A stretch of 64,000 nucleotides of DNA. Source: a virus. The position numbers and the translations under genes are program-made. The notes beneath the pieces were generated by a model, which made no database searches, had not been told where the DNA came from, and saw only the letters and a program-made list of their open reading frames with translations. Positions 27,116 through 46,000 of the stretch are shown one piece after another; the first letter of the stretch is position 1; each line of letters starts with the position of its first letter. The stretch covers positions 64,001 through 128,000 of the IMG/VR virus record IMGVR_UViG_3300036770_005682; one strand, written 5' to 3'.

Positions 27116-27264
27116 CGGCTCAAAGTCACCGAAAGCCGTCGGGCGACCTGCCGGAAGAACTCCAACTGACCGGCGATGCTGGCTCAACAGTCCCGTATAG
27201 CTCTTAGAGCTCTACGGGGCTAACGCGGCGGGAAGAAGGTTTCCTGCGGGAAGTTCCGCAACCT

Positions 27265-27370
27265 AACACGAAAAACTCAAAAGTCAAGTTTTTGGAACCT
27301 TGAAAATAAAGGATTTCAAGTTTTGGGTTTTTGAAAATAAAAAACAAGAAACTGAAAACTCGGTTTTGCC
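27265..27370. other. A/T-tract-rich non-coding segment (likely bent DNA)
   Basis: Closely spaced A4-6/T4-5 tracts inside otherwise GC-rich DNA. Confidence 0.55.
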
Positions 27371-27645
27371 GTCGGCACGAGTGCCATCTGAGTCCCCGTG
27401 CGGCTGACCTCGGCAGCCCCGCCGCCAGCATCTCAAAAAGATTTGACGGTGGCGGAAGAGCGGGTTCGGGTCAGGGTTTTGTGCCAAACCTAGACGCTCA
27501 GAACGGCTCAGGCTGAAACGGGGTCACCGATACCGCAGAAGAGGACGAACTCCCGTGAGAGGGCGTGTGAGGGGGCTATCCGAGGCGTTTAGGGGCATGG
27601 CAAAGCCGACCCACCCAACTGGCAGGTCGGCTCAACCGATAACTA

Positions 27646-27696
27646 CTAGACGAAGAACAGCGCAGTCAAGGCGATGACTACAACGATGGCGGTCAT
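27646..27696 (-). CDS. 16-aa hydrophobic micropeptide
   Basis: MTAIVVVIALTALFFV; ATGA overlap with the upstream gene. Confidence 0.45.
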   Translation of the reverse strand: MTAIVVVIALTALFFV

Positions 27697-27965
27697 GCTT
27701 GGGGAATACCCAAAGCGGCGAGCGTTGGGTGCGTTGAGTGTGTTTCTCCCTGTGCGTCTACCCACACAACAACATCACGACGAGGTGGTTCTTGCCCGCA
27801 TGGGTAAAAGGCTGCCTTGTGCCAACCCTTAGAGCCACAGTTGTCGCAGTAGCGTTCCCAGTCTTGCGGGTCGTCCCACCACGCATGAGTTGCGTAGTTC
27901 GCATCTGCTTCTTCTTGTGTCCCAGCGAAAGGGACTGGTTCGTTTATGAGTTGGATTACCTTCAT
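27693..27965 (-). CDS. Cassette hypothetical protein (Zn-ribbon)
   Basis: ATG 7 nt after -10 (leaderless); CDNCG. Confidence 0.65.
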   Translation of the reverse strand: MKVIQLINEPVPFAGTQEEADANYATHAWWDDPQDWERYCDNCGSKGWHKAAFYPCGQEPPRRDVVVWVDAQGETHSTHPTLAALGIPQA

Positions 27966-27972
27966 GTTGTGA

Positions 27973-28001
27973 AGTGTACCTAGCACATCGCAGAAAGTCA
28001 A
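27973..28001 (-). promoter_or_regulatory. Cassette promoter
   Basis: TTGACT-N17-TACACT. Confidence 0.75.
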
Positions 28002-28353
28002 GCGATGTCGGAAGAAACTTTCGAGACCTTCCTGGACGCCTGGCTGATGAACCCGATAGTCCCGTATCCCCAAGATGGGTATACGGGGCTGATGGCACGG
28101 GAAGGAAAACTTCCGGAGTTGACTTTTCACGGGCGGCTTGTTAGGTTATGCGTTTTGGTGTTTTGAGGTTTTTCACCACTTTTAGTGGTTTTTGAGCAAA
28201 GTTCGCCACGGAAAGTGGCGATTCCGAGAAAAACAACAAAACAACAACGAAGTTCTCGCCCGCCGAACGTGCGCTGAGCCGACATCAACTGGGTCGTCTG
28301 CGGGGCTGATGACCCAGTCACATTTACGACGGTGGCGGAAGACGGGCAACAAG

Positions 28354-28385
28354 AAAGCCCGCCCCCTTTCGGAGACGGGCTCTTG
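28354..28385 (-). terminator. Intrinsic terminator
   Basis: AAAGCCCG...CGGGCTCTT hairpin. Confidence 0.65.
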
Positions 28386-28439
28386 GTCAAACTGCCAGCA
28401 GAAGAACAACTGCCAGCGTAATCACTAACGCTGTCACTC

Positions 28440-28637
28440 TTAGTTTGTGTCCCCCTCTTCGGGGGAAACGATGTAATCAACATCGCCCCAAACTATTTCG
28501 TGCTCTCGCACTGCTTTTACTTTTCCCAATTCGTTGGTGATGAGGTCAAGGTATGCCTCCACCTTCGCTTCTGCTTCACTTTCTGACTTTGCGTCAAAAG
28601 TGTGAACCATCAGCGTGATGTTCGCTATGTATTTCAC
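28440..28637 (-). CDS. Cassette hypothetical protein
   Basis: GTG 6 nt after -10 (leaderless). Confidence 0.6.
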   Translation of the reverse strand: MKYIANITLMVHTFDAKSESEAEAKVEAYLDLITNELGKVKAVREHEIVWGDVDYIVSPEEGDTN

Positions 28638-28643
28638 AGGTGG

Positions 28644-28688
28644 AATGTACACCCTGTACAACACAACGTCAATGTGTTCTGCGTCACA
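28644..28688 (-). promoter_or_regulatory. Cassette promoter with CRP-like box
   Basis: TGTGA-N6-ACACA abutting TTGACG-N17-TACATT. Confidence 0.78.
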
Positions 28689-29097
28689 CCTACGTCCAGC
28701 CGATGACCTGTCGTTGCTGTGAGATGTCAGCCGCCGCAGCGATGACCAGCATCTCGTGGGCTGAGCCCCAGGTGGGCAAAAGCCCCGATGGGGTAATACC
28801 CCAGCACGGGGCTGCCAGGCGCAACCGGCCGGAAGGCCTCGATGGCCGGCCCTCCCCGAGTTATTCGAATAAGTTTTGGTCTTTGTCGAGCAAAAACGAC
28901 CACTTTTTGTGGTTTTTGGATAAATCCGACCACGGAAAGTGGTTTTTCCTAAAACTAAAACGGAAAAGTCGAGCTCAGCTCCTCGAGCTCACGTAGCTTC
29001 GCCAGCTATGCGGGGTTGTGGGGCGGGGCTCACAACCCCGACGCATCTACTTTGACGGTGGCGGAAGACGGCTAGCGCACCTGAGCCGAGACAGCAA

Positions 29098-29135
29098 CAA
29101 GCCCGCCGTGCGGGGGGAAGGGGCACGGCGGGCTT
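29098..29135 (-). terminator. Intrinsic terminator
   Basis: AAGCCCGCCGTGC...GCACGGCGGGCTT hairpin. Confidence 0.7.
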
Positions 29136-29155
29136 GTGCGATTGGTGAGAATGGA

Positions 29156-29518
29156 CTACTTCCAGCAGGCAGCGGAATAGACGACTTCGCTCAGGTTGTC
29201 GCAATAGACATCAAGCACTTCGTGCTCAACGACTAGCGTACCTTTCGCTTCGCCACGGTTCACGAGTCGGACACGGCGCACTTCGTACAGGTCTAGGTAG
29301 TTGAGTACCACCTCAACCGCACGACTCTCTCCGCACAGCATTAGCAAGCCAATGGTCACGCCATCGCTAGCGTTCACCTTTGCCCACTTTCCACCGCACA
29401 CAGCGAGAAAGGTCATCTTGCCCATTTGGGCTATGACCTCTTGCGGGTCGCAGTCACGACCTGAACGGTCAAGGTTGCGCAAGGCAATCAGAGACAGGTC
29501 GGTTTTCGTTGCTTTCAT
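29156..29518 (-). CDS. Cassette hypothetical phage protein
   Basis: GAAAGGGGGTG RBS; LDLYEVRR...DVYCDNLSE. Confidence 0.7.
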   Translation of the reverse strand: MKATKTDLSLIALRNLDRSGRDCDPQEVIAQMGKMTFLAVCGGKWAKVNASDGVTIGLLMLCGESRAVEVVLNYLDLYEVRRVRLVNRGEAKGTLVVEHEVLDVYCDNLSEVVYSAACWK

Positions 29519-29541
29519 TTCTTCACCCCCTTTCACCTTGC

Positions 29542-29586
29542 AGGGTACAAGTCGCAAGTGGGTAAGTCAATAGGACAAGTGTCACA
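29542..29586 (-). promoter_or_regulatory. Cassette promoter with CRP-like box
   Basis: TGTGA-N6-TCCTA abutting TTGACT-N17-TACCCT. Confidence 0.72.
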
Positions 29587-29597
29587 CTCGCCAGCCA

Positions 29598-29638
29598 GCC
29601 CGCCCGCACGCCCGCCCGCACGCCCGCCCGCACGCCCG
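29598..29638. repeat. 12-bp tandem repeat GCCCGCCCGCAC x3
   Basis: Seen directly in the linker. Confidence 0.8.
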
Positions 29639-29783
29639 TACGCACGCGCGCGTAAGAGTCCCGGACGGGATTTATTCCCGACGGGGCTCCCGCACGGGAT
29701 TGACGGTGGTGGAAGAGTTCCGATGCGGGCACAAACAAAATGCCCGCCCCCTTGCGGAGACGGGCAGTTCGTTGGAGTTTCAG

Positions 29784-30140
29784 TTAGCGGTCTGGATTCG
29801 GCGTTGCCTTCACCGTAAAAGTTCCGCTTGCATCGTGGTGGGCGAGGTGGCAAGTGAGCACTTTCGTTTCAGGGTCAAGCGAGTAACGCAATGACCATTC
29901 CGAACGGACAGTGATACTTTCCAACAACTTCATCGGAGTATCGGCGTGGAAAATGCCGTCTATCGTGCGTGCCCACAAAGGGAATCCTTCAATGCGCCAC
30001 CAAGTGTCGCCTTCGTGAAGTTCCTTGTTGTGTTCAAGCATGACTTCGGCAGTCATGGCAAACAAGTCTGTCGCCATGTCCCACTCCCACTCTTCGGAAG
30101 TGTTGCTTACCTCTTCCCACTCCAAGTCGGAGTCAAGCAT
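29784..30140 (-). CDS. Cassette hypothetical protein
   Basis: GAAAGGGGGG RBS; C-terminal HHDASGTF; terminator at 29737-29770. Confidence 0.7.
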   Translation of the reverse strand: MLDSDLEWEEVSNTSEEWEWDMATDLFAMTAEVMLEHNKELHEGDTWWRIEGFPLWARTIDGIFHADTPMKLLESITVRSEWSLRYSLDPETKVLTCHLAHHDASGTFTVKATPNPDR

Positions 30141-30170
30141 GACTCCCCCCTTTCATGAGTTGAGAATGAC

Positions 30171-30225
30171 AGACTACCGACTTAGTAGCGATTAGTCAAG
30201 TAGGCATCGTGTGACATTAGGCACT
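30171..30225 (-). promoter_or_regulatory. Cassette promoter with CRP-like box
   Basis: AGTGC-N6-TCACA 10 bp upstream of TTGACT-N17-TAGTCT. Confidence 0.72.
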
Positions 30226-30465
30226 TCCGAGTAAGACGATAAGAATAAGGACTACAAAGATAGGCACTAATGACATGACAGCAACTTACCGCACCTGAGC
30301 CGAAAAAACAACAACCCGATGTCGGCGATGTCGGGATGGGACGGGAGCCCCGGAGGCCCGCTGCCGGCCCACGGGGCTAACGGGTATCCGACGGTGGCGG
30401 AAGAAGGGCTCGCACTTCTCGTCGGGCTGACTTGGTCTGCTCAGTTTCAGTCGTGCTGTTTCGTG

Positions 30466-30542
30466 CGAACGCCTGTTCGGGTCGTGAGACGCTCTGCCCC
30501 TGTGTGTCTCATGCGAACACCTGTTCGGCGAACATCTGTTCT
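30466..30542. promoter_or_regulatory. Three LexA/SOS boxes (CGAAC-N4-GTTCG)
   Basis: 30466-30479, 30514-30527 and 30529-30542 (last ends GTTCT); matches the Gram-positive/actinobacterial LexA consensus. Confidence 0.75.
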
Positions 30543-30585
30543 GTGACAAACGACACTTGCAATGTGTCCTTGACACCTGTACCCT
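30542..30585 (+). promoter_or_regulatory. Cassette promoter with CRP-like box
   Basis: TGTGA-N6-ACACT overlapping TTGCAA-N17-TACCCT. Confidence 0.7.
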
Positions 30586-30590
30586 ACTAG

Positions 30591-30692
30591 GTGGGACAAC
30601 CTGCCCGCCTAGCCTGTGGTGAAGCGACCTGCGTCACGGGGGGAACTAGAAAAGGTAGGGGGTGCGCCGTAGGGAAGGCGTACCTGTCCCAC
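30591..30692 (+). ncRNA. Candidate structured 5' leader RNA
   Basis: GTGGGACA/TGTCCCAC closing stem; inner CCTGCC/GGTAGG and GGTGCGCC/GGCGTACC stems; starts at the predicted TSS. Confidence 0.45.
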
Positions 30693-30719
30693 TCAACATA
30701 AGAACCGAGAAGGGGAACC

Positions 30720-30896
30720 ATGACACGCAAAGATTATGTCTTGCTTGCCAGTCATCTCCGCTACGCTCGTACGGGCGTTTCCGTCTCTCTGCTTGCAGGG
30801 TTTGACGAAGCCGTAGAAGCAATAGCGGACGCACTCGCAAGTGAGAACCACCGTTTTGACCGCGATAAGTTTTTGGAAGCGGTGAACCCGAACTAA
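30720..30896 (+). CDS. Small phage early protein (MTRKDY...RFDRDKF type)
   Basis: 58 aa, below the ORF-track cutoff; GAAGGGGA RBS; terminator follows. Confidence 0.75.
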   Translation: MTRKDYVLLASHLRYARTGVSVSLLAGFDEAVEAIADALASENHRFDRDKFLEAVNPN

Positions 30897-30920
30897 ACAT
30901 TCCCAACACCACAGGCACAG

Positions 30921-30957
30921 AAAGCCCCATGCCGTTTGGCGTGGGGCTTTTTGTTTG
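30921..30957 (+). terminator. Intrinsic terminator
   Basis: AAAGCCCCATGCC-gttt-GGCGTGGGGCTTTTTGTTT. Confidence 0.8.
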
Positions 30958-31133
30958 CCCTCAACTCCCAGTCGGAACACCTCGCCAGATGGCTTTGATG
31001 GCATCTGGTAGCCCCGGAAGCCGTGCGGCAGCAACGGGGCTCCCACAGGAGTGCGACGGTGGTGGAAGTCCCCTGGTCTCCGCCTCTCCTCGCCTACCTC
31101 GCCCGCTGTCATCATTCGTCTGTCTCAAACTGA

Positions 31134-31178
31134 TGTGACAAACGTCATGTTGTGATGTGTACCTGACAGGTGTAGTGT
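31134..31178 (+). promoter_or_regulatory. Cassette promoter with CRP-like box
   Basis: TGTGA-N6-TCATG abutting TTGTGA-N17-TAGTGT; ATG 7 nt later. Confidence 0.68.
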
Positions 31179-31185
31179 GCTATGT

Positions 31186-31773
31186 ATGGAAACAGCAACG
31201 AAGGAAGCCATAGCACTACGGGTGCTTGCCGAATACTGGCAGACAGATGTAGCCCCAATGGTGAACCCACGAGCCTGTGTGCTTGCTGGACGCTTGGCGA
31301 CTGTTGTGCTTGGTCGCATCGGCATTTCCACCGCCGTCTACCACACCGACACCGTTGCTATGAATGACCTGTGGTACAACCTGTTCATCGTCAAGGGGCT
31401 TGGTCAGCAGTTCCTTCCCCCTGAGGCATGGTGTGTTGGTGCTGTCACCGCAGATGTCAAGGGAACGCACAGCACGATGGTTGGCGGTTTCAGCGGTCAC
31501 CTTGTTGTGACAACCCCGCACCACTTTGTAGACCTGAGCGCAAGCCAGTTTGACCGTCCCTCACATGACATCGTGACTGGCTCGCCACTCATCGTCCCCC
31601 GTGAGAACATCACAGACACGCCACATGGCAAGATGGTTCCGATACAGCGTGGTGTTTACATCACGAAGCCTGCCGAGAACCCTGCGTCATACCAATGGAC
31701 ACCCGACTGGCAGACCAACTACAAGACCTTTGCGAAGCCACTCATCACCCGCCTGCGGGAGATGTTCTCGTGA
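31186..31773 (+). CDS. Cassette hypothetical protein, possibly transglutaminase/papain-like
   Basis: ACVLA...GHLVV...VDLSASQFDRP gives a C-H-D order. Confidence 0.65.
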   Translation: METATKEAIALRVLAEYWQTDVAPMVNPRACVLAGRLATVVLGRIGISTAVYHTDTVAMNDLWYNLFIVKGLGQQFLPPEAWCVGAVTADVKGTHSTMVGGFSGHLVVTTPHHFVDLSASQFDRPSHDIVTGSPLIVPRENITDTPHGKMVPIQRGVYITKPAENPASYQWTPDWQTNYKTFAKPLITRLREMFS

Positions 31774-32027
31774 CCGTACGAGACTGGTACGAGTTTGTGG
31801 AAACGGACTTGGAGAACTACGAGCGTGAGAAGTTTCGTGAGATGCTGTCCGACATCGGCTTTGATGACCTGTATGTGGAACGCACCGATGACCACGGCAT
31901 TTGCTACTTGTGCGAGCGTGATGGAGTGTTGTACCTTGTAATGAACAGAGGACAACTGCGTGAGACAAATGCCTACTACCTTTGCTCTACCTGTACTAAC
32001 GAGATGAAGCGAAAGACCGAAGAATGA
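31770..32027 (+). CDS. Zn-finger hypothetical protein
   Basis: GTGA overlap; CYLC...CSTC. Confidence 0.6.
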   Translation: MTVRDWYEFVETDLENYEREKFREMLSDIGFDDLYVERTDDHGICYLCERDGVLYLVMNRGQLRETNAYYLCSTCTNEMKRKTEE

Positions 32028-32182
32028 CCGGAATGTTGTATTCGCAGCGCAACGCACACTCATGCCCGTGGGGGTGCTGTGGCGATTTCGTCAAGGGTCG
32101 TGGAACGAAGCACCGCTGTAAGAAGTGGCATCGCATCTTGCGTACCCGTGAGAAGCGCAACTGGAAGAAAGAGGAATGGTGA
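32024..32182 (+). CDS. Small basic Cys-containing protein
   Basis: 52 aa MTGMLYSQRNAHSCPWGCC...; ATGA overlap. Confidence 0.5.
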   Translation: MTGMLYSQRNAHSCPWGCCGDFVKGRGTKHRCKKWHRILRTREKRNWKKEEW

Positions 32183-32649
32183 CTGCACCCGAATACGAAA
32201 GTTGGTGGGACAGCGATGCTGGCAAGCCCGCCAGTCTCTGCGATGCCTGCGGGCAGAAGCAACTACTAACCCAACAGACATCGCCCGCCCTTCCTGATGG
32301 GGGCTGGATTATGGAGTTTGAGCATTTCGGCTATTACGGCGGGTTCTCTGACGACATTGAGGTTGCGTTTGGCAAGCGAGACAGTAACTCATGGTCGCTT
32401 TGCCATGACTGCGTTGTGAAGTTCTTTGAGACATTCCCTGCGCTAGCGGAGAAGTTCGGTCGGGGGCACCACCCCAACTTCATTCACACAGACGACCTGC
32501 CGTACAGTGAGCGAGGCACATCTAGCCCGTCATGCTGTCGCTTTGCGTGGACATGGAATGTGACCGTTGAGAACGGAGAGAAGGTCTACGAGACTTTCTA
32601 CGGAGATGGCACAGGTGGCTGGGTTGCCCAGTCTAAGGAGCGAGTCTGA
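32176..32649 (+). CDS. Zn-binding hypothetical protein
   Basis: CDACG...GYYGGFSD...LCHDC. Confidence 0.65.
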   Translation: MVTAPEYESWWDSDAGKPASLCDACGQKQLLTQQTSPALPDGGWIMEFEHFGYYGGFSDDIEVAFGKRDSNSWSLCHDCVVKFFETFPALAEKFGRGHHPNFIHTDDLPYSERGTSSPSCCRFAWTWNVTVENGEKVYETFYGDGTGGWVAQSKERV

Positions 32650-32695
32650 TGGTTGTCAGCATCGTCGCCCTGATAGCCATCCTTCTGCTGTTGTC

Positions 32696-32908
32696 CTAGA
32701 ACAGCATTTCCCCGCTACTGCCCTCTTTCTTTTTTCTGCTTGTCTCTGTCTCTACGCAGATGGAGTGGGCGTACTTGTGCTGGTTCTTCACGCCCCTGAT
32801 GCCTGTGTTGTTGTCACGCACCCACGCCAACACGAGTTTCATAGTTCCACTTTGGTTCGGAACTACCTCTTGGTCACAGAACTCACATCGGAAGCGAACG
32901 TACGACAT
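32696..32908 (-). CDS. Zn-ribbon hypothetical protein
   Basis: CEFC...HSIC. Confidence 0.45.
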   Translation of the reverse strand: MSYVRFRCEFCDQEVVPNQSGTMKLVLAWVRDNNTGIRGVKNQHKYAHSICVETETSRKKKEGSSGEMLF

Positions 32909-33047
32909 TATGGAAATAATACCGGCCGGGGCTCCCGAGCGCAACAGCATCTTCTTTGACGGTGGTGGAAGAAGCCCCTGAACGGGGACAGCAGAAAGCC
33001 CACACCCGTTTCCGAGTGTGGGCTGACTGTTGGAAGCGAGTTGTGCG

Positions 33048-33503
33048 CTAGTTGTTCTTGGCGATGAGTTGGTAAAGCGTGGAGAGCAGAGCGTCTGCGA
33101 GAGAGCCGTGCGCTTCACCTTCGTCTGTCATCGGTTCATCGGGGTCGTGCTGAAAGACGACTGCCGAACCCATTGTTCCGTCACGCTCAACGCAAGCACA
33201 GAGACGCACACGCTGACGGAGTGGGTGCTGGCTTGGTGCGCCTTCCACTTCGCCGTTGGAGTTGAGTGGGGAAGCCCACCCCGTCGTCAGGACACCAATG
33301 CCCTGCTCGTACTCCTGAATGTTCTCAATGCTCGGCAGGCTCGCAAGCCCTTCGTAGATGTCTCCTGCTGTCGCAAGGACACGGAAGCCGTCGGCACAGT
33401 ACGCAAACAGGACTGCCTGTTCCATACTGAAACCTTCGTCTCCTTCCTTGGAGAGTGAGTGCTGGGCGAGTAACGCCATACGCACAGGTGTTGGTGTTGT
33501 CAC
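33048..33503 (-). CDS. Cassette hypothetical protein
   Basis: GAAAGGGG RBS; terminator at 32995-33025; GWASP...PSQHPLRQRVRL. Confidence 0.72.
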   Translation of the reverse strand: MTTPTPVRMALLAQHSLSKEGDEGFSMEQAVLFAYCADGFRVLATAGDIYEGLASLPSIENIQEYEQGIGVLTTGWASPLNSNGEVEGAPSQHPLRQRVRLCACVERDGTMGSAVVFQHDPDEPMTDEGEAHGSLADALLSTLYQLIAKNN

Positions 33504-33533
33504 TTGTTCCCCTTTCGTAGTGGTGACAGTTAC

Positions 33534-33578
33534 ACACTACACAGAACACAAACAAATGTCAATGTGTCGTTAGGCACA
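33534..33578 (-). promoter_or_regulatory. Cassette promoter with CRP-like box
   Basis: TGTGC-N6-ACACA abutting TTGACA-N17-TAGTGT. Confidence 0.75.
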
Positions 33579-33769
33579 GCCGGCAAGTCCAAACTTTGAC
33601 CGAGTCCAAACTTTGAGCAGGTCAAGACCGACAAACCGGAACGCCGGTGACATCTGGGGCTGAGAGCCCCGCGCCCCGCCGCAGCCCAACGGGGCTCCAC
33701 ACCACTTTGACGGTGGCGGAAGAAGCCCTCGTGTGCGCCTGCGTGTGTGCGCCTGCGTGTGTGCGTGAA

Positions 33770-33824
33770 TGTGCCGAATGTCACTACGCACCCCTATTGA
33801 CTTGCTGTTCCTGTCAAGTACACT
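33770..33824 (+). promoter_or_regulatory. Cassette promoter with CRP-like box
   Basis: TGTGC-N6-TCACT 11 bp upstream of TTGACT-N16-TACACT. Confidence 0.7.
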
Positions 33825-33856
33825 CAACAACACCTACTAACCGAAGGGACGGAACA

Positions 33857-34441
33857 ATGGGAATGGACGTAATCGGGAAGAACCCGAAGAACAAGAAGGG
33901 CGAATACTTCCGCAACAATGTGTGGTGGTGGCGACCCCTGTGGCAATACTGCGAGTATGTCGCACCCGAACTGACCGACAAGGTGGAATACGCTGGCTCT
34001 AATGACGGAGACGGGCTGGACGGAGATGACGCTCGCAAGTTGGGCAACGCTCTGCGGAAAGAACTCCGCAAGGGCATGACCGCCGTGTACATCTCTGCTC
34101 GTCAGGAATACTTGGACAGCCTGCCTGTTCGCCCGTGCGCCCATTGTGAGGCAACGGGAACTCGCAAGTGGCTGGTCAATGCCACTACAAACGAGCGCAA
34201 GCCGGCTGTGACCTACAACTTCTTGGAAGCGTTCACCAACGAGCAGACGAACAACGGGCAACTGCCGACTTACGAGTACCACACGCCCGAAGAAGGCTGG
34301 GTGGAAGAGACAACCGAATGTAATGGTTGTGAAGGCACGGGTGGACAGCCTGCGTGGGAACGCTCGTACCCCCTCACCGAAGAGAATGTTCGTGAGTTCG
34401 CCACCTTCTTGGTGAACTGCGGTGGATTTGAGATTTGGTGA
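33857..34441 (+). CDS. Phage early hypothetical protein with DnaJ-like CxxCxGxG motifs
   Basis: GEYFRNNVWWWRPLW...CAHCEATG...CNGCEGTG...GGFEIW. Confidence 0.78.
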   Translation: MGMDVIGKNPKNKKGEYFRNNVWWWRPLWQYCEYVAPELTDKVEYAGSNDGDGLDGDDARKLGNALRKELRKGMTAVYISARQEYLDSLPVRPCAHCEATGTRKWLVNATTNERKPAVTYNFLEAFTNEQTNNGQLPTYEYHTPEEGWVEETTECNGCEGTGGQPAWERSYPLTEENVREFATFLVNCGGFEIW

Positions 34442-34659
34442 TGACCCCCGTACATGACCTTGTGCTGCGCTTCATGCGCTCAAACCTCATTGGCAAGCGT
34501 GTCACTTTGTTGTTCACTTCCGACCCCTACACCAACCTCACACGGGGTGATGAAGGCGTTGTGGACTACATTGACGACATTGGTACTGTGTTCGTCAAGT
34601 GGGACAACGGCTCTCGCTTGGGTCTTGTGGAAGGAGAAGATTTGTGGACATACAACTGA
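34441..34659 (+). CDS. DUF4314-like SH3-fold protein
   Basis: GKRVTL...DPY..L..GDEGVVDYIDDIGTVFVKWDNGSRLGL. Confidence 0.75.
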   Translation: MTPVHDLVLRFMRSNLIGKRVTLLFTSDPYTNLTRGDEGVVDYIDDIGTVFVKWDNGSRLGLVEGEDLWTYN

Positions 34660-34898
34660 CAGATGAATGGGCTGACATCTCTATTGCTGAGTTGGCTGAC
34701 CTCATGGAAGAGAACTACTACCTGCTCGCAAGTACGGGTCAGGACGCTTTTTTGGCGTTCGCAGATGATGTGTTGCGTGGTGCGTTCACCGAGTATCACG
34801 GCATGAGCGAGGAACGGACTGCTTTGCTCATGGTTGAGTTTGTCAAGCGTATGGTTCTTGTGTGGGACAAGCCTGCCGTGCCTTACGAGGTGCGCTAA
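34644..34898 (+). CDS. Hypothetical protein
   Basis: AAGGAG RBS before GTG. Confidence 0.6.
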   Translation: MDIQLTDEWADISIAELADLMEENYYLLASTGQDAFLAFADDVLRGAFTEYHGMSEERTALLMVEFVKRMVLVWDKPAVPYEVR

Positions 34899-34963
34899 TG
34901 CTGTGGTTTATCGGTATGTCGGCACTCGCTAGTCTTATTTTGTACCTGCGCTTCTCTGACTAA
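34898..34963 (+). CDS. 21-aa hydrophobic micropeptide
   Basis: MLWFIGMSALASLILYLRFSD; TAATG overlap, GAGGTG RBS. Confidence 0.45.
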   Translation: MLWFIGMSALASLILYLRFSD

Positions 34964-35010
34964 GTTCTCCAACAGGGGTAATCCGTCCCCCCTTTCACCT
35001 CTGTTGGACT

Positions 35011-35056
35011 GAAACCCCCAAGTCGTGTCTCACGCTGGCACGGCTTGGGGGTTTTC
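35011..35056 (+). terminator. Intrinsic terminator
   Basis: GAAACCCCCAAGTCGTG...CACGGCTTGGGGGTTTTC. Confidence 0.75.
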
Positions 35057-35246
35057 TCATGTCCGAACTTCGGTGGCCATCTACGGCCAGCATCACAGAT
35101 GGTAAATACGACCCGCCGGGGCTCCCGCCCGCCCGCCCGTCACTACTTTGACGGTGGCGGAAGAGCAGGGACACGAGAGTGGGTACACGAGAAAGGGGTC
35201 GCCCACCGCATTTGGCAGGCGACCCCTTAGCAGGGACGGTCAGTTG

Positions 35247-35822
35247 TCAGTTCTGCGAGTTCTGATAGGCGTGACACGCCTTCGTGAAGGCACGGAAGAT
35301 GTCGGAGACAACGCCGTGGAGTTCTCCATCAGCGATGTCAGGCTCGTCATACACAGGCAGTCCGTTGTCGTCATAGCGATAGAACACGGTCGCACCGATG
35401 GGTTCTCCGTCCCACGGATACACGCTGACGATGATGCCTTCACGAACATCGGTGGAAGGGTTCGTCTTGTATTCCTCTTCGTACGCACCACGGTCGTGAT
35501 TTTCCAACTCTTCTTCGGTCACACTTCCAGCAGGCTTGGCGTAGCCTTCCACGATGTAGGCGAGCCACTTCCAGCGAACAGACTGAAAGTTGTCCACCAT
35601 TCCTTCTGCGAGTCCTGACAACATCAACGGCAAGGTGTCGGTCGGGTGTCCTTCCATCAGGTCGGGCATAATGAAGCCGTCACCGCTCGGCAGTTCACCA
35701 ACAAGGGTGGGCGGTGCGTCCGTTATCCCTTTGTTCTCTTCACAGATGCCGTACTTGGCTTCCATCGCACGGGCAACGACAGCCAACAGAATGTCTGTTG
35801 GCGTCATCTCTTCTTCTTCCAT
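35247..35822 (-). CDS. Acidic cassette hypothetical protein
   Basis: AAGGGGG RBS; terminator at 35192-35228. Confidence 0.72.
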   Translation of the reverse strand: MEEEEMTPTDILLAVVARAMEAKYGICEENKGITDAPPTLVGELPSGDGFIMPDLMEGHPTDTLPLMLSGLAEGMVDNFQSVRWKWLAYIVEGYAKPAGSVTEEELENHDRGAYEEEYKTNPSTDVREGIIVSVYPWDGEPIGATVFYRYDDNGLPVYDEPDIADGELHGVVSDIFRAFTKACHAYQNSQN

Positions 35823-35857
35823 TTGGTTCCCCCTTATGGGTAGTAGGTACAGGTGTC

Positions 35858-35901
35858 AGTTTATGGTGTGTCCAACCTGTTGTCAAGTGCCATCGGTCAC
35901 A
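35858..35901 (-). promoter_or_regulatory. Cassette promoter with CRP-like box
   Basis: TGTGA-N6-GCACT overlapping TTGACA-N17-TAAACT. Confidence 0.75.
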
Positions 35902-36064
35902 CGCCTGAAACTTGGAGTCAGTCCAAAGTTTGAGCAAGTCCAGCCCGCACCACGAGCCAGAAGGTCTGGCTGAGGGCAGAAGCCCCGCGCCCCGATGCTG
36001 CCGTCCGGGGCTCATCAGCCTGACGGTGGCGGAAGAAGCCCCTGCGCCCTGTACCCTGTACCGT

Positions 36065-36226
36065 ATGGGTCGGCGTAAGCACATCGCACAACCGAAATGG
36101 ACGGCAGACGAGCGCACAGCGTTCGGTGATGGGGTGCGTACACGAGCAAGCACCGTGCCTGACAAGCGCAAGCGGGAGAGCAAGCGAGCCTGCCGACAGC
36201 CTGTGACGGACGACACAGAGAAATAG
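36065..36226 (+). CDS. Small basic protein
   Basis: TACCCT -10 seven nt before ATG; RASTVPDKRKRESKRACR. Confidence 0.55.
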   Translation: MGRRKHIAQPKWTADERTAFGDGVRTRASTVPDKRKRESKRACRQPVTDDTEK

Positions 36227-36295
36227 TTGCTTTTCGTGTGTGGGGTGTGTAGTGTTCCCCTTGTACCTGACACCCACAGCAGGAAGCGATAAGGG

Positions 36296-36350
36296 TGTGG
36301 CGAATGTCACACAAGAACCTATTGACAAGTGCTTGTGTCCCCTGTAAGGT
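36296..36350 (+). promoter_or_regulatory. Cassette promoter with CRP-like box
   Basis: TGTGG-N6-TCACA 10 bp upstream of TTGACA-N17-TAAGGT. Confidence 0.75.
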
Positions 36351-36388
36351 ACACATTGTCCACAAGTCCCCAAACAAGAAAGAAGGAA

Positions 36389-36811
36389 ATGACCGTGGCA
36401 CACTCAGTAGAGCAGGCAACCCGCCTGTACCTGTTGGCAAAGGAAGCCAGCGCACAAGCGGAAGCACAGAAGAAGGAAGCGGAACAGGCGTTGCGTGAGG
36501 CACTCGCCATCGCAGGCATCAGCGCAAGCGTGGTGGACGGCATCAAGGTCGCCATCGTGGAAGGCGAGCGCAAGTCCTACGACGCAGACAAGTTGGCGAT
36601 GCTCGTGAAGCCCGCCACCTACAAGAAGGTCACCAAGCCCGTCGTGGACGGGGAGATGCTCGCAAGCGCAGTCAGCGTTGGCATCATCTCGCAGGAAGTG
36701 GCAGACACCATCACAAAGGTCACCACCTACTCGCAGGTGCGTACCACCGCCGTCTCGCCCGATGCGAAGGCGAAGTCCCTGTCCGACAACGGCAAGGCGC
36801 AGGTCGCCTAG
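36389..36811 (+). CDS. Hypothetical protein with N-terminal coiled coil (Gam/Gp157-like architecture, tentative)
   Basis: AGAAGGA RBS; helical N-terminus followed by a beta-rich region. Confidence 0.65.
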   Translation: MTVAHSVEQATRLYLLAKEASAQAEAQKKEAEQALREALAIAGISASVVDGIKVAIVEGERKSYDADKLAMLVKPATYKKVTKPVVDGEMLASAVSVGIISQEVADTITKVTTYSQVRTTAVSPDAKAKSLSDNGKAQVA

Positions 36812-36952
36812 CACCCACAAGTCTCGTGTGGGGTGGGAGACACCGCAGATGCTCGCCCACCCCACACAAGAAAGTGGCTACGCAGGTTGTGACTATCAAC
36901 CGAAGTGGCTACACTCCACAACACCAACAACTCCCACGAAAGGGGAACCCCA

Positions 36953-37693
36953 ATGACAAGTGTGGCAGACACACAAGAGACACTTCCCGCCTGTTGGCAG
37001 GAAGTCCACGATGCGCTGGAAGCGGGCATTGACCGCCTTATCCTGTTCGGCGTTCCAGGAACAGGCAAGACCTACGCAGGTCTGAACTACGGCAACACCG
37101 ATGCGGGTGCGTTCCGTCTCATCTGTACCGATGACATGACCAACGCCGATGTGACAGGGTGCTGGCAACCCAATGACCACGGCTCGTGGTCGTGGCTGGA
37201 AGGCTCGGCTATCCGTGCGTGGAAAGGCGATGGCACAGTCGGTGGTCGTCTCGTCATTGACGAGATAGACAAGGCTGGTGGCGATGTGTTCGCTACCCTG
37301 CTTGCGATGACCGACAGCCCTGAGAGCGCAAAGTGGGAACACCCGCACACCCGCAAGGTGTTGCGCCCCAACGCAGGTTTCAGCGTGGTGATGACCACCA
37401 ACATTGAGCAGATGAGCGACCTGCCGATGGCACTCAAAGACCGTTTCCCCGTGTGCGTCCGTATCAACGAACCGCACCCGTCAGCACTCGCCCGTCTGAG
37501 CGAGGACTTGCGTGACTACGCCCGTCAGATGGCAGACGCAGGCGAACGCCGTATCTCTCTCCGTGCGTTCTACGCCTTTGACCAACTGCGTACCGCACTC
37601 GGCACGAAGCGGGCGGCGCAGATGGTGTTCCGTGACCGTGCTAAGAGCGTGGTGGACGCTATCGCCATCAACACCATGACCCCGCAGAAGTAG
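36953..37693 (+). CDS. MoxR/CbbQ/NorQ-type AAA+ ATPase
   Basis: GVPGTGKT Walker A, LVIDEIDKA Walker B, TTN sensor, ALKDRF. Confidence 0.88.
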   Translation: MTSVADTQETLPACWQEVHDALEAGIDRLILFGVPGTGKTYAGLNYGNTDAGAFRLICTDDMTNADVTGCWQPNDHGSWSWLEGSAIRAWKGDGTVGGRLVIDEIDKAGGDVFATLLAMTDSPESAKWEHPHTRKVLRPNAGFSVVMTTNIEQMSDLPMALKDRFPVCVRINEPHPSALARLSEDLRDYARQMADAGERRISLRAFYAFDQLRTALGTKRAAQMVFRDRAKSVVDAIAINTMTPQK

Positions 37694-37698
37694 GGGTC

Positions 37699-39231
37699 AT
37701 GTCCAAGAGCAACGAAACGCCTGTTGAGGCGACCATCAAGAAAGGCGCAACGCCACAGTATCCCGAACCTGAGATGCTGTCTCGTGGTGACCTGACTGCC
37801 ACAACCGACAACAAGCGTTGGAACATCGTGAATGTCCAACCTGTGCGTGGCGAGCCAATGACGGAAGTGACGCACCGTGAGATGCGTGTGCCGATGTACG
37901 ACACCGAACACTCACGCCACATACGGGCGCACGAGATGACCCACGCCAAAGTCTCGCCAACTGCGAAGCAGTTTGAGAAGTGGGTCGCTCGTGGCTACGC
38001 CAAGCCCGCAACGCTCGTGCGCTGTGAGGAACTGCGTGTGAATGTGCTGTGCGCCCGTGCGGGCTTTGAGCCGATGACGCACCTGACGGACGGAAGCGAG
38101 TATCTCGCAGGCAAGCGCACAGCAGAGGCGAGCGACTTTCAGAGTGCCGTGCTGGACGCTATCTCGTTCCGTGGCACGGCAGGATACGCACCGTACTTGG
38201 AAGGGGTGAAGCAGGTGAAGCCGATGTGGGCAGACCTGCTGGAAGCCATCTCCAAGACGGGCGAGGACTACTTCACGAGCGTCACCGACAACCCACGCTC
38301 GCAACCGCAACTGTGGGACACCCACAGCCGTCTCCACTTGTCAGGCTTTGGCTATGTGGAGAACTACGCCAAGTGGGTAGAAGAACAGGTGGGTGCGCTG
38401 TGCGACAACCCGACAGGCGAGCCACAACCACAGCCCGCAGGCAAGGAAGGCGAGGGCAAGGAAGGCGAGGGCAAGCAACCTGACAAGTCACCTGCCGAAG
38501 CAACTGCCAACGCAGGTGAACGCCTGACGCAAGACCGGTGGGGTCGTGGCAGTATCCCGAAGCGTGGTCGTGCGACCTTGTGGGAAGAACTGCGTGTCGC
38601 CACGCCTGCGTTGGAACGGAATGTGATGGGTGCTATCGGGCGCAAGCGTGTGGCATCGCAGACAGGGCGCAACCCACGCCGTCTGTCTCGTATGCTCACC
38701 GACCCTGAGAAGCGCATCTTTGACCGCACCGTGAAAGGCGCAGGTGGCGTGGTACTCATTGACACAAGCGGGTCAATGTCGCTAGACCACGATGAAGTGA
38801 TGGCGATGGTACTGAACGCACCGTCAGCACTCGTGGCGCAGTATTCGGGTGGCAAGCCATCACGCCCCAACCTGTATGTGGTCGCCAACAAGGGCAAGTG
38901 TGTGAACCAACTCCCGACACCGAATGGTGGGAACGGAATGGACGCACCCGCCTTGCGTTGGGCTATCTCCAAGCGTCAGCGCAACACCGCACCTATCATT
39001 TGGGTCACAGATGGTGGGGTCACGGGCAAGGGCGATGGCTGGTACGAGGACTTGGCGATGGAATGTATCAACCTTGTGAAGCGTCACGGCATCTACACCG
39101 CCGAAACGCCTGAGCAGGCTATTGAGATGTTGCGGGCGATGTCAAAGGGCGAGAAGGTCAAGAGCATTGTGCCATCGCACCTGTCAGCCGTCTATCAGTC
39201 CATCACGGGTCACGAACTGACCTTCCGCTAG
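37699..39231 (+). CDS. vWA-domain partner of MoxR with N-terminal HExxH motif
   Basis: HEMTH; LIDTSGSM MIDAS; WVTDG. Confidence 0.82.
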   Translation: MSKSNETPVEATIKKGATPQYPEPEMLSRGDLTATTDNKRWNIVNVQPVRGEPMTEVTHREMRVPMYDTEHSRHIRAHEMTHAKVSPTAKQFEKWVARGYAKPATLVRCEELRVNVLCARAGFEPMTHLTDGSEYLAGKRTAEASDFQSAVLDAISFRGTAGYAPYLEGVKQVKPMWADLLEAISKTGEDYFTSVTDNPRSQPQLWDTHSRLHLSGFGYVENYAKWVEEQVGALCDNPTGEPQPQPAGKEGEGKEGEGKQPDKSPAEATANAGERLTQDRWGRGSIPKRGRATLWEELRVATPALERNVMGAIGRKRVASQTGRNPRRLSRMLTDPEKRIFDRTVKGAGGVVLIDTSGSMSLDHDEVMAMVLNAPSALVAQYSGGKPSRPNLYVVANKGKCVNQLPTPNGGNGMDAPALRWAISKRQRNTAPIIWVTDGGVTGKGDGWYEDLAMECINLVKRHGIYTAETPEQAIEMLRAMSKGEKVKSIVPSHLSAVYQSITGHELTFR

Positions 39232-39345
39232 ACCGCACAGGCGGACTGTTCCCCCACCCACAGGGACAGCCCGCCCAAGCGTGGCGGGCGGGTGGCACTT
39301 CCCCCTTTCAGTCACCCGCCCGCCTGAACACGAAAGAGAACGCAG

Positions 39346-39507
39346 ATGAAGTGGAACACCACAGCAGTCATGGGTCACATTGTTGAGACTGTGACCACCG
39401 AAGCAGACGACATTGACACCGCAACGGAGATGGCATACGACCTGCTGGAAGGCAAGGGCTATGACCTGTCAGCCTTTGACGAAGTGACAACGGAGAGCGA
39501 GCGATGA
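39346..39507 (+). CDS. Small acidic hypothetical protein
   Basis: 53 aa, GAAAGAG RBS, ATGA overlap with the next gene. Confidence 0.55.
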   Translation: MKWNTTAVMGHIVETVTTEADDIDTATEMAYDLLEGKGYDLSAFDEVTTESER

Positions 39508-39764
39508 GCAAGTACCGTGTTCAGGTCATGGTCGGCGTAGATGTCTCAGCCGACACAGATGGCGAGGCGATGGTGAACGCCGTTGCGAAGGTGCGTGGCA
39601 TTATCGGGGAGAACCCGACAGAGCCAATGCCGAAGGAAGCGTGGGTGACGGGCATCGCACTTGCCGACCCCGCACATTGGCATCACACGAGCGTTGAGGG
39701 GTACATGGTATTCCGACAGCCCGACCGAGCCGAGGACAACTCTTTGACGGTGGCGGAAGACTAG
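39504..39764 (+). CDS. Hypothetical protein; 3' end contains a polar motif copy
   Basis: ORF track; motif at 39743-39760. Confidence 0.6.
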   Translation: MSKYRVQVMVGVDVSADTDGEAMVNAVAKVRGIIGENPTEPMPKEAWVTGIALADPAHWHHTSVEGYMVFRQPDRAEDNSLTVAED

Positions 39765-39988
39765 TCGCTGAACACTTTTTTGTCGTAGATGCGTAGGGCA
39801 TTTACGGCAAGGCTGGTCACGGCGCACTTCCAGTAAGGTGCGTTCCAGTCTGTGATGTCAGACGAACGCAAGAACCACAGCACAACCCACAGCACTCCGC
39901 CGTAAATAGAACCCGCAAGTCCAGCCCCTGCTAGCGTAACTAAGAACGCTGGTTTGGGGCTGTTTGTTATCTCAGGGTGTTTAGGCAT
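39761..39988 (-). CDS. Small membrane protein
   Basis: Start moved to MPKHPEIT; hydrophobic segment. Confidence 0.5.
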   Translation of the reverse strand: MPKHPEITNSPKPAFLVTLAGAGLAGSIYGGVLWVVLWFLRSSDITDWNAPYWKCAVTSLAVNALRIYDKKVFSD

Positions 39989-40355
39989 TGACGGTCTTGC
40001 CCAAGCGGTTGATGATTTGGTGAACGCGCTGGCGCGACAACCCGTACTCATCACCGATGCTTTGGAGCGACCTGCCATTTTGACGGGCAACGAGCATGGC
40101 GTTGTCCCTGTCGGGATTACCTGATGGGCCGGGCTTACATGGCCCCCATGCCCACCCTGCGAACTTCTCCAACTGTGCGATGCGCTCAGGAGACAGAGTG
40201 CCTGCCCGATACTTGATACGCACATAGGTCACCCATGACCCAAGTGAAACTGTCTCTCCGTCCACCGAACACTTGTACGAGGTCGGTACAAGGGCTGTTC
40301 CGTGTTCTGAAACGTAGGTGGATAGTGCTTGAATGTTTTTGTCCCATCGGCTCAT
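39981..40355 (-). CDS. Helicase-associated (HA) domain fused to a sigma-region-4-like HTH
   Basis: WDKNIQALSTY..EHGTALVP...LGSWV...LSPERIAQLE; SLQSIGDEYGLSRQRVHQI. Confidence 0.75.
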   Translation of the reverse strand: MSRWDKNIQALSTYVSEHGTALVPTSYKCSVDGETVSLGSWVTYVRIKYRAGTLSPERIAQLEKFAGWAWGPCKPGPSGNPDRDNAMLVARQNGRSLQSIGDEYGLSRQRVHQIINRLGKTVNA

Positions 40356-40554
40356 AGTCTTGACATTACTCGACCGGCCACCGGCTGCGGCGGAACCGGC
40401 TTGACAGCCCCGCGATGCGGCCGCCAGCTTCCGGGGCCCCTGATGACGGTGGTGGAAGACAGGGCCGGCCCTCGAGAAAGTTTTCGCCACGTGTTGCATT
40501 TGTCAGTTGTACTGGGTAGTGTGACGGCACCACTTCACAAGGAAGGAGAAGGAA

Positions 40555-40764: not shown

Positions 40765-40803
40765 CAAACGTCACTTGACAAACTGGCTTGTGGGGTGTAG
40801 CGT
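40760..40803 (+). promoter_or_regulatory. Promoter with near-consensus CRP-like box
   Basis: CGTGA-caaacg-TCACT overlapping TTGACA-N17-TAGCGT. Confidence 0.78.
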
Positions 40804-42705: not shown

Positions 42706-43015
42706 CAACTCTTTTACGGTGGTGGAAGAGGTTGTAATTACATAACGAAGTAGCTATTATGACTAAACAAATGCTGACGCCTGATATGACGCTCCGCTCG
42801 ACACTGTGCGAGCTCAAGAAATTTGAACACCCTCCAGTGAGCCGCTTTAAATTAGGCAGTCCTTGTCGTTTCATCCGAACAATTGACATATTTGTCCACA
42901 TCGTTATCCCCGAACTTGTGGAAAAACCTTTTCCACATCTCGCGCGATATCTGCGCAACACATCCCCTCGCTGGGGCCGCAGCTGGCGGCACTGGTAACT
43001 ACAGAAAGGAAAACC

Positions 43016-43573: not shown

Positions 43574-43618
43574 TCACTGACAACTCTTTTACGGTGGCGG
43601 AAGACCTAGTATTACTGC

Positions 43619-44214: not shown

Positions 44215-44634
44215 GGGATGCCGGGGCTCCCACCCACGTTGCGCTCATTAACATTTGACGGTGGCGGATGACCCCAAAAAAATTTCCCGAATCTGCTTGC
44301 AGCCGCCACACCCTCCTGCTACAGTTCCTCCCACAACCGAAGGCCGGCCTAAAACCTTCACTTTCAACGTTGCCCAAATCCAGCAACGTTATTTGTGTTG
44401 CCCCAACTCATGTTTTTTACCCCTGCCGCCTAGTGGGGGGGACTACAGGGGGGGGGTAAGTCACCTTACTGAACAATAATTGCGTTCTAGTACATCAGCT
44501 AGCGCTGATTGTTCTAGAAGCGTGAAATAACTTGAAGTTCTATAGTTCTTGAGTAAGGTAAGTCATAGTTAGTACTACAACTCCCCTACCAGTATGTTGT
44601 AGTACCAATGGTCGCGTAGAAGGAGTAAGTAATT

Positions 44635-45965: not shown

Positions 45966-46000
45966 CGCCCTTTATTCACCACGGTGGCGGAAGTGTGTTA

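Follow-up and report, generated by a model that had tools for sequence, protein, structure and literature searches.

The closest described counterpart of the element discussed here is the promoter-early stem-loop (PeSL) of T4-type myoviruses, a stem-loop that immediately precedes a promoter of sigma-70-like type (Comeau et al. 2014, PMC4122927; Arbiol et al. 2010, PMC2839356). In the passages of these two papers that deal with their nature, PeSLs recur in hyperplastic regions full of ORFans, have stems built from a G-run and a C-run, and serve as crossover points for the insertion, deletion, replacement and displacement of open reading frames (ORFs), with degraded PeSLs keeping the −35 and the stem-loop and losing the −10. 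The same passages propose that recombination proceeds via the phage's own machinery, leave homologous versus site-specific exchange open, and ask whether the conserved stem is the target of a protein. Our subject is an inverted repeat of fixed geometry, AGYCCCG-N18/19-CGGGGCT, which recurs ahead of a one-directional (polar) motif in a stretch of 64,000 nucleotides from IMG/VR record IMGVR_UViG_3300036770_005682. This stretch, called the window below, comprises bases 64001-128000 of a single 137,811-bp contig with 49% G+C that IMG/VR classes as a virus, 100% complete, with direct terminal repeats. The source is a large uncultured tailed phage with an actinobacterial host.

Integron attC sites offer a second point of comparison: they are polar sites between cassettes in which the inverse arms and the fold are conserved while the interior varies, and the cassettes may point either way. 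At this locus, in contrast, there is no integron integrase or other tyrosine recombinase, the arms are unlike attC core sequences, and crossovers fall 6-31 nt past the hairpin in a promoter-like 17-mer, with at least one at the left arm of the repeat. A third comparison is with the operators and stoperators of L5-type (cluster A) mycobacteriophages, described in the cited passages as asymmetric short sites in more than 20 copies with a bias to one orientation, which lie in promoters as well as short intergenic spaces, are bound by a monomeric immunity repressor of temperate phages and follow transcription in their orientation (PMC9283540). It is the 17-mer, not the inverted repeat, that resembles them as they are described there, being asymmetric, present in many copies in one orientation, and located both in promoters and in intergenic spaces. 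The differences from that description are that no integrase is present here, the sites lie within about 18.5 kb, the flanking genes run both ways, and a hairpin stands upstream, a component that the cited passages do not describe.

The likeness to PeSLs is closer. A stem-loop with a G-run/C-run stem is repeated among small ORFs, with ORF breakpoints at the elements, and all the PeSL features that can be checked in a sequence appear to be present, except for the −10 in the window's lineage. The two systems nevertheless differ in several respects. This phage belongs to a distant lineage with a host of another phylum (WhiB genes; 49% identity of the capsid protein with Brevibacterium and Gordonia phage counterparts), the −35 and 11 spacer bases are identical across very distant phages, all 17 copies in the window are without a −10 while the cassettes have their own promoters in either orientation, and three hairpin architectures are built round one 7-mer box. 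On the side of the window, this comparison draws on sequence only. Among the titles listed by a literature search for PeSL-type linkers, none dealt with phages of Actinobacteria.

Our preferred reading, to which we give a probability of roughly 45%, is that the repeat is the hairpin half of a PeSL-like one-directional linker between small cassettes, and that cassettes are shuffled at this linker. The linker would consist of a stem-loop, a spacing of about 7-14 nt and the 17-mer TTGACGGTGGYGGAAGA (core GACGGTGGYGGAAG, also written (TT)GACGGTGGYGGAAGA), and would border small self-contained cassettes of the phage's variable region. In distant relatives the 17-mer would still drive co-oriented genes by way of an extended −10; in the window's lineage the −10 would have been lost, with cassettes using their own promoters and terminators in either orientation. 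Since the linkers are the only sequence common to the cassettes, recombination would happen there, its likely agent being the phage's Rad52-type annealase together with a PD-(D/E)XK exonuclease, and cassettes would be gained, lost and re-ordered with their orientation kept. Like that of PeSLs, the hairpin, which would most likely fold on the + strand, would attenuate transcription or serve as an insulator in front of the promoter core.

Geometry of the repeat and polarity of the motif

A fixed-gap search of the window finds AGYCCCG-N18-CGGGGCY at 29657, 31010, 33665 and 35981 and AGYCCCG-N19-CGGGGCY at 27189, 28058, 28781, 30346 and 40406, with a mean of 0.00 expected for either pattern in 100 dinucleotide-preserving shuffles. 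An earlier note on this DNA had listed eight of these copies; all are present, the one at 28058-28090 had been missed, and nine loci against 0.00 in shuffles is far from the chance frequency that the note had named as an objection. The 7-bp arms, described there as conserved in all copies, are so apart from the copy at 40406, whose right arm reads CGGGGCC instead of CGGGGCT. Six copies had been placed about 6-15 bp upstream of a polar motif, and six (29657, 30346, 31010, 33665, 35981 and 40406) indeed end 6-13 nt upstream of the GACGG within it. The remaining three (27189, 28058 and 28781) stand about 215-240 nt ahead of the next polar motif, in long-form linkers where an A+T-rich block of about 200 bp and a second box or hairpin come first. 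The right-arm sequence CGGGGCT occurs 24 times in the window versus 6.29 ± 2.51 expected, and its copies are, with one exception, confined to 26.6-44.9 kb. The five linkers reported to keep only this half (28301, 29024, 32927, 35117 and 44222) do so, and the boxes at 28301 and 29024, said to sit in the loop of a different hairpin, are found at the tips of hairpins of 11 and 12 pairs. The spacers had been called unrelated, which holds for some of them, while several are clearly kin to each other and most start with CG or GA.

In related phages the spacer of the two-armed form (type I below) is equally constrained, at 17 nt in 2 copies, 18 nt in 17 and 19 nt in 4, and does not vary freely, the other objection that the earlier note had named. 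Three more of the 26 two-armed copies have a spacer of 10-13 nt, and the left arm is mismatched in all three. When the 26 copies are aligned, the outer stem is paired in 98.4% of cells and five of the seven arm pairs are invariant, and the distance from the foot of the hairpin to GACGG is 6-17 nt. Such uniformity could in principle reflect descent. The linkers could be functionless paralogues of one ancestral spacer, with arms and length fixed by common origin and homogenisation; several interiors are clearly homologous, other linker blocks such as the upstream CAGATGG/CATCTGG are common too, and junctions made at identical sequence would necessarily display it intact. We nonetheless consider a relic decidedly unlikely, given arms invariant at five of seven pairs over 26 copies whose interiors range from related to unrelated at nearly constant length, a box kept in three structural settings, and the persistence of the element across phages whose neighbouring proteins are 36-67% identical.

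In the window the 14-mer core of the polar motif has 12 exact copies and five with one mismatch; they lie on the + strand without exception and within 27445-45993, so that 17 copies are packed into about 18.5 kb; a search of the 137,811-bp genome with up to one mismatch finds none elsewhere. Its polarity extends to ten related records, in which 114 copies (14-mer, up to one mismatch) lie on one strand and 0 on the other. Because G002, G003 and G006 are near-identical, the count was repeated without two near-duplicate records and stands at 87 versus 0; a backwards control pattern occurs 0-1 times per record. At least 195 stretches in IMG/VR contain the exact 17-mer, against about 20 chance matches expected by our own estimate, and among 80 matches listed, 19 contigs carry 2-7 copies, on one strand within each contig. 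Copies always cluster in 15-20 kb round a conserved AAA ATPase and its partner protein of about 510 aa. The cultured relatives Cantare, ChisanaKitsune and GMA6 hold only two-mismatch matches, which are as frequent as those of the control pattern, and are thus without the motif. In the literature, two 14-mer forms of the motif, one of them also as its reverse complement, occur in none of about 8.4 million texts, 10-mer matches turned out to be unrelated primers, and a keyword search on actinophage repeats and promoters gave nothing relevant.

Outside the window's own lineage the 17-mer has the architecture of a promoter. Among 121 non-redundant contexts from an unbiased scan, TAnnnT lies 16-18 nt past TTGACG in 38, compared with about 3.6 at shifted control offsets; in 27 the distance is exactly 17 nt, with TG at the extended −10 in 21 of them. 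With a −10 at promoter distance in relatives, the 17-mer there corresponds to a −35 hexamer followed by an 11-nt spacer, and we take it to be a −35 of the SigA/sigma-70 type plus 11 spacer bases. In distant relatives, genes running with the motif outnumber those running against it, by 25:9 in G001, 29:11 in G004 and 11:4 in G005. ORFs in the window are mixed relative to the motif (21 on + vs 15 on −), and 10 of the 17 copies there open with TTGACG or TTTACG; only the TTTACG copies at 42715 and 43590 precede plausible A+T-rich hexamers and gene starts.

Several other identities were considered and rejected. The 17-mer is not a host promoter, since its promoter form (17-mer plus TGnTAnnnT) occurs in two contigs only, both from metagenome-assembled genomes, among the genomes of 185,579 species. 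No supporting feature was found for a T-box or tRNA-end pairing, a Chi-like site, a primase site, a diversity-generating retroelement or a clustered regularly interspaced short palindromic repeat (CRISPR), which were dropped given the lack of an Rfam hit, the clustering in 18.5 kb only and the absence of a reverse transcriptase.

Cassette order and crossovers at the linkers

Comparison of window positions 26-47 kb with relatives by BLASTN, with the segments between motifs numbered 0-17, shows that the homologous blocks between polar motifs differ in order among six phages and always have the same orientation as the motif. The orders are 0,1,.,2,3,6,9,4,8/5,7,10-17 in G002; 0,.,.,2,4,3,6,9,5,8,7,10 in G007; ...3,4,.,.,8,.,10,11,12,.,14,16/15 in G008;.,.,3,.,9,4,5 in G009; and ...3,.,9,4,5,8,.,10,11,12,.,14,16 in G010. 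Individual crossovers can be placed at the linkers, two in or at the 17-mer and one at the left arm of the repeat, with a resolution limited by sequence identity. In a four-way alignment of the window linkers 32958 and 35150 with G002 linkers 5136 and 8238, sequence follows one partner as far as the stretch before the 17-mer, this stretch included, and the other directly after GGAAGA, which puts the switch at the 17-mer. In the case of G002 linker 6723, the left side matches the end of window cassette 4 and the repeat interior matches that of window cassette 3, which puts this switch at the repeat's left arm. Block ends are a crude proxy for junctions, as they reflect divergence too; of 45 left ends, 8 come no farther than 30 nt from a polar motif versus 6.5% expected (P 0.008, the ends not being independent).

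Contigs of four DNA runs were also compared, ignoring joints with sides of fewer than 30 letters. Two freshwater runs hold a variant that is about 92-95% similar. A low-depth joint, 35164>32985 (depth 3.6), matches the 8>7 cassette adjacency of G002 and G007 rather than a circle, and no circle junctions, as would come from the mini-circles that form in the PeSL system by recombination between flanking elements, were seen in these contigs. As a separate observation, the small − strand gene at 28441-28644 is swapped for 227 unrelated letters in freshwater contigs X5 and X7, and this replacement (28441>28644) is not at a polar motif. Orientation, too, has changed in places: the − strand window genes 33048-33503 and 35247-35822 have homologues on the motif's strand in G001 (L196), so that over longer evolutionary time cassette genes have been inverted relative to the linker.

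The earlier note had read the repeat and the motif together as a composite site of att/res type. A composite site does stand at the cassette boundaries and relatives do exchange there; the att/res part finds no support, as it needs a recombinase and none was found in the complete genome. Six-frame searches gave 0 matches to the tyrosine recombinase profile (Phage_integrase, PF00589), the serine recombinase profile (Resolvase, PF00239) and the Y1 transposase profile (Y1_Tnp, PF01797), all of which respond in control genomes, and the Pfam scan of 77 ORFs and PHROGs scan of 69 ORFs, which covered the larger ones, showed nothing recombinase-like. Membership of the att/res, attC or IS200/IS605 type thus lacks its recombinase or transposase here. 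The suggestion of a recombination core fares no better, in that the polar motif of relatives has the character of a promoter's −35 and spacer. Outside the window, at 20,336-21,755 of the genome, the phage encodes a Rad52/22-family annealase and a PD-(D/E)XK nuclease, and exchange at the linkers would probably be homologous rather than site-specific.

A dedicated cassette recombination system deserves consideration all the same, with the hairpin (as a cruciform or folded strand) and the 17-mer forming the site of an unrecognised recombinase. Polar sites bound cassettes that are permuted, gained and lost with orientation kept, crossovers are seen at the 17-mer, the build is attC-like in its conserved inverse arms, free interior and constrained length, and the 17-mer is conserved beyond what a promoter needs. 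The authors of the PeSL studies, in the passages cited, left site-specific recombination open (PMC4122927; PMC2839356). Such a system is unlikely in our view. Besides the lack of a tyrosine or serine recombinase, a Y1 transposase or anything recombinase-like by Pfam and PHROGs, at least one crossover lies at the left arm and not at the 17-mer, one context in three shows a −10 at promoter distance from the 17-mer, five window 17-mers are without hairpin or box, and the arms do not resemble the R''/R' consensus of attC. A more daring variant makes the linkers the sites of an integron-like exchange system in a widespread uncultured clade of actinobacterial phages, run by a protein outside the known recombinase families or by a guided Rad52-type annealase. 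A partner such as the small protein with HA and sigma-70 region-4 domains encoded in the window would then read the folded arms and the 17-mer. This too we hold to be improbable.

Hairpin or protein site: the function of the repeat

The CGGGGCT box was surveyed in 205 non-redundant polar-motif contexts from the window and its relatives, part of them preselected for the exact box. Within 52 nt upstream of the motif, 70 of the 205 have the exact box and 15 a one-mismatch form, compared with 6 and 10 in a control window farther upstream. The box occurs in three settings: as the 3' arm of the type I repeat; at the tip of a hairpin (type II); and with CGGGG as the 5' arm of a small hairpin (type III, in which boxes without an evident hairpin are also counted). 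As a result its distance to the motif is free (7-31 nt), while the foot of the hairpin is usually about 7-14 nt before GACGG. In type II, 8-20 contiguous pairs surround the box in 11 of 49 non-type-I contexts versus 1.7% after 3'-flank swaps, and the stems are complementary yet unrelated in sequence among copies. These covarying hairpins provide strong evidence of selection for a fold in type II. Their T-rich, interrupted tails, mostly 7-13 nt, run up to GACGG. In total the window holds nine type I and two type II hairpins.

The earlier note had favoured a dimeric protein site or a recombination core rather than an RNA stem. Two observations speak for a stem. First, G-U pairing in the type I arms is kept only when the + strand is read: at pair 3, 17 copies have C-G, 8 have U-G and a single one has C-A, a bias that fits folding of the + strand, several of the U-G copies being kin by descent. 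Second, the same box tips hairpins with different yet complementary stems. The covariation check proposed in the note gives a divided answer, with the type II fold selected and the type I arms providing evidence neither way. Intrinsic terminators offer a partial parallel, being likewise G+C-rich intergenic hairpins, and type II has long perfect stems and T-rich tails. Type I differs from them in an interior of 17-19 nt that is often unpaired and in having no T-run. A role as terminator or insulator may be proposed for the hairpin.

A processing or stability hairpin (of RNase III/E type) or an antitermination signal in long rightward transcripts would also account for a G-U-tolerant stem that fits the + strand only, a constrained overall length, boxes at hairpin tips and a position that is always intergenic. 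Most window copies, however, are antisense to divergent units or lie between them. A search of window positions 26000-47000 against Rfam 15, with E up to 1, gave no family match and a single row, an unrelated sub-threshold small RNA (E 0.27). An RNA signal other than termination is for these reasons very improbable.

Care must be taken not to overstate the case for a PeSL-like linker, as a number of results weigh against it. For the hairpin, the outer arms of the 26 type I copies show no compensatory double changes, and interior pairing is not significant overall relative to shuffles (mean z −0.6, with negative values in 17 of 26 copies; P 0.087 in a one-sided Wilcoxon test), with clearly structured interiors (z < −1) in 9 of the 26 and C-rich, unpaired ones in others. 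The type I hairpins are without a T-run, and none of the nine was listed by a terminator scan in which the cassette genes' canonical T-tailed terminators do appear. In the window, eight of the nine repeats follow a − strand gene and so lie between its promoter and the polar motif, where only read-through transcription reaches them. This position weakens a pure terminator role and fits one at the level of DNA as well as one at the level of RNA. For the promoter, a strict test finds TAnnnT at 16-18 nt in 0 of 17 window copies, and a −10 is present in only 3 of 16 box-bearing contexts of an unbiased scan. With the −10 gone from all 17 copies, activity of the 17-mer as a promoter in the window's lineage is doubtful, yet the 17-mer itself has stayed intact. 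For the recombination, there is no excess of right block ends at the motif (3 of 41, P 0.5). Furthermore, the 11 spacer bases, which are not known to play a part in sigma binding, are kept even between phages that show only 36-67% identity in the proteins encoded nearby, which plain homologous recombination leaves unexplained and which calls for a sequence-specific reader. There is probably some protein that recognises the 17-mer and the conserved arms. For the −35-like 17-mer, a candidate could be the small HA/sigma-70 region-4 protein, which is found in the same position and on the same strand in every motif-bearing relative checked.

Several of these points would be expected of a double-stranded regulator site. 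The arms would be the half-sites of a dimeric phage or host protein, 25-26 bp apart from centre to centre, and the 17-mer an operator or 'stoperator'-like site for a second protein, possibly the one with the HA and sigma-70 region-4 domains. The sites would switch the variable region or block elongation, and cassette exchange would be a by-product of their identity. Near-invariant arms without compensatory change, a spacing of 17-19 nt even where the interior cannot pair, and the position of eight of the nine window repeats between divergent promoters, where little transcription is expected, all agree with this. So do the asymmetric, multi-copy, one-stranded 17-mer at promoters as well as promoter-less intergenic spots, the conservation of the sigma region-4 protein in all relatives checked, and the retention of the spacer part of the 17-mer across distant phages. 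On the other hand, many linkers have a single box, which lies 7-31 nt from the motif and either caps another kind of hairpin or belongs to its 5' arm, and 25-26 bp would, from the helical repeat, place the half-sites on roughly opposite faces of the helix. The unrelated but complementary type II stems also indicate that the fold is what is kept, and the motif's orientation in the window is independent of the direction of flanking genes. A regulator site is therefore possible, if on the unlikely side, and a PeSL-like linker remains our tentative choice.

Feature coordinates, surrounding genes and significance

The features of the linkers are collected in Table 1.

Table 1 Repeats, boxes, polar motifs and candidate reader protein, in window coordinates.
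Feature	Position	Strand	Remarks
Type I repeat, AGTCCCG-N19-CGGGGCT	27189..27221	+	long-form linker; no adjoining polar motif; interior z −4.1
Type I repeat, AGTCCCG-N19-CGGGGCT	28058..28090	+	long-form linker; interior z −3.6
Type I repeat, AGCCCCG-N19-CGGGGCT	28781..28813	+	long-form linker; interior z −2.8
Type I repeat, AGTCCCG-N18-CGGGGCT	29657..29688	+	13 nt to GACGG
Type I repeat, N19	30346..30378	+	11 nt to GACGG
Type I repeat, N18	31010..31041	+	13 nt to GACGG; the only one after a + gene
Type I repeat, N18	33665..33696	+	12 nt to GACGG; interior C-rich, unpaired
Type I repeat, N18	35981..36012	+	9 nt to GACGG
Type I repeat, N19, right arm CGGGGCC	40406..40438	+	6 nt to GACGG
Type II hairpin, 11 contiguous pairs	28288..28318	+	box 28301-28307 at tip; T-rich tail
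Type II hairpin, 12 contiguous pairs	29011..29040	+	box 29024-29030 at tip
Lone AGCCCCG (left-arm form)	27415..27421	+	23 nt before polar motif 27445
Half-only CGGGGCT box, type III	32927..32933	+	24 nt to GACGG
Half-only CGGGGCT box, type III	35117..35123	+	26 nt to GACGG
Half-only CGGGGCT box, type III	44222..44228	+	28 nt to GACGG
Polar 17-mer	27443..27459	+	exact 14-mer core
Polar motif	28326..28342	+	exact 14-mer core; AC in place of leading TT
Polar 17-mer	29052..29068	+	exact
Polar 17-mer	29700..29716	+	exact; homology blocks to G007, G009 and G010 begin
Polar motif	30388..30404	+	exact 14-mer core
Polar motif	31053..31069	+	exact 14-mer core
Polar 17-mer	32956..32972	+	exact; crossover relative to G002
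Polar 17-mer	33707..33723	+	exact
Polar 17-mer	35148..35164	+	exact; crossover relative to G002 and G007
Polar motif	36020..36036	+	exact 14-mer core
Polar 17-mer	39744..39760	+	exact; within last codons of ORF 39504-39764; no preceding hairpin
Polar motif	40443..40459	+	exact 14-mer core
Polar motif, TTTACG form	42713..42729	+	1 mismatch; −10-like A+T-rich hexamer ~16 nt on; gene start 42759
Polar motif, TTTACG form	43588..43604	+	1 mismatch; −10-like hexamer ~16 nt on; gene start 43619
Polar motif	44255..44271	+	1 mismatch
Polar motif	44971..44987	+	1 mismatch; in end of ORF 44635-44991; doubles as next ORF's ribosome-binding region
Polar motif	45978..45994	+	1 mismatch
HA domain + sigma-70 region-4 helix-turn-helix protein	39981..40355	−	opposite strand to motif

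The linkers contain further blocks. Between a type I repeat and the second box lie A+T-rich inserts of about 200 bp at 27222-27414, 28091-28300 and 28814-29023, which have in common T-runs and small CCAC-N4/5-GTGG hairpins. In relatives, a conserved block (about CGAACGTGCGCTGAG) stands ahead of the type II hairpin. CAGATGG or its complement CATCTGG is found 30-60 nt upstream of most boxes, for example at 30985-31008 and 33648-33656, and this block is semi-conserved in most linkers of the window, G002, G007, G008 and G010. Short G+C-rich tandem repeats lie beside some linkers (29598-29651, 33731-33765 and 35124-35139, with periods of 12, 14 and 4), preceding the 29657 repeat and following the 33709 polar motif.

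The cassette genes, whichever strand they are on, carry their own TTGACA-N17-TACAYT-like promoters and T-tailed terminators. Directly upstream of the −35 in three + strand cassette promoters is a palindromic GTGACAAACGTCAC-like motif (30543-30556, 31135-31148 and 40761-40774, with 0-1 mismatch), matched five times in the window against 0.7 expected when two 2-mismatch sites elsewhere are counted; it looks like an operator of the cassettes' own promoters. Most ORFs between polar motifs are without a PHROG or Pfam family. The cassette region (27-40 kb) has a G+C content of 0.55-0.59, compared with about 0.45-0.52 in the remaining phage. An AAA_5 ATPase and its 510-aa partner (PHROG 33218, no Pfam family) are encoded at 36953-39231 on the + strand, and this pair is a conserved anchor of the motif-bearing region in every relative. 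Neither the 510-aa partner nor a VWA protein has a match in the cultured phage collection, and megablast of the motif region found no cultured phage.

Elsewhere the phage encodes three WhiB-like proteins, ribonucleotide reductase, a primase/helicase and a helicase (Pfam and PHROGs scans), as well as baseplate J, portal, T4-type terminase and HK97-type capsid proteins, the last sharing 47-49% identity with its counterparts in Brevibacterium phage Cantare and in Gordonia phages of the GMA6/ChisanaKitsune group. Twelve tRNA genes, all on the − strand, lie at window positions 3503-14848 with small ORFs in between. WhiB-like genes are located in or near this stretch at 3583-3879 and 18226-18540, and the third is at 46001-46435.

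Descriptions of PeSL-type linkers have so far come from T4-type phages, and a similar layout is seen here in a distant lineage, with a linker core that is identical in dozens of metagenomic phage contigs and cassettes that are visibly re-ordered between relatives. The linkers provide a sequence-defined handle for locating the variable 'accessory' regions of these phages. With this handle, the pool of cassettes can be catalogued, likely including genes for host takeover and counter-defence. It can also be asked whether modular phages shuffle by plain homology or with the help of a dedicated reader of the hairpin and the 17-mer.

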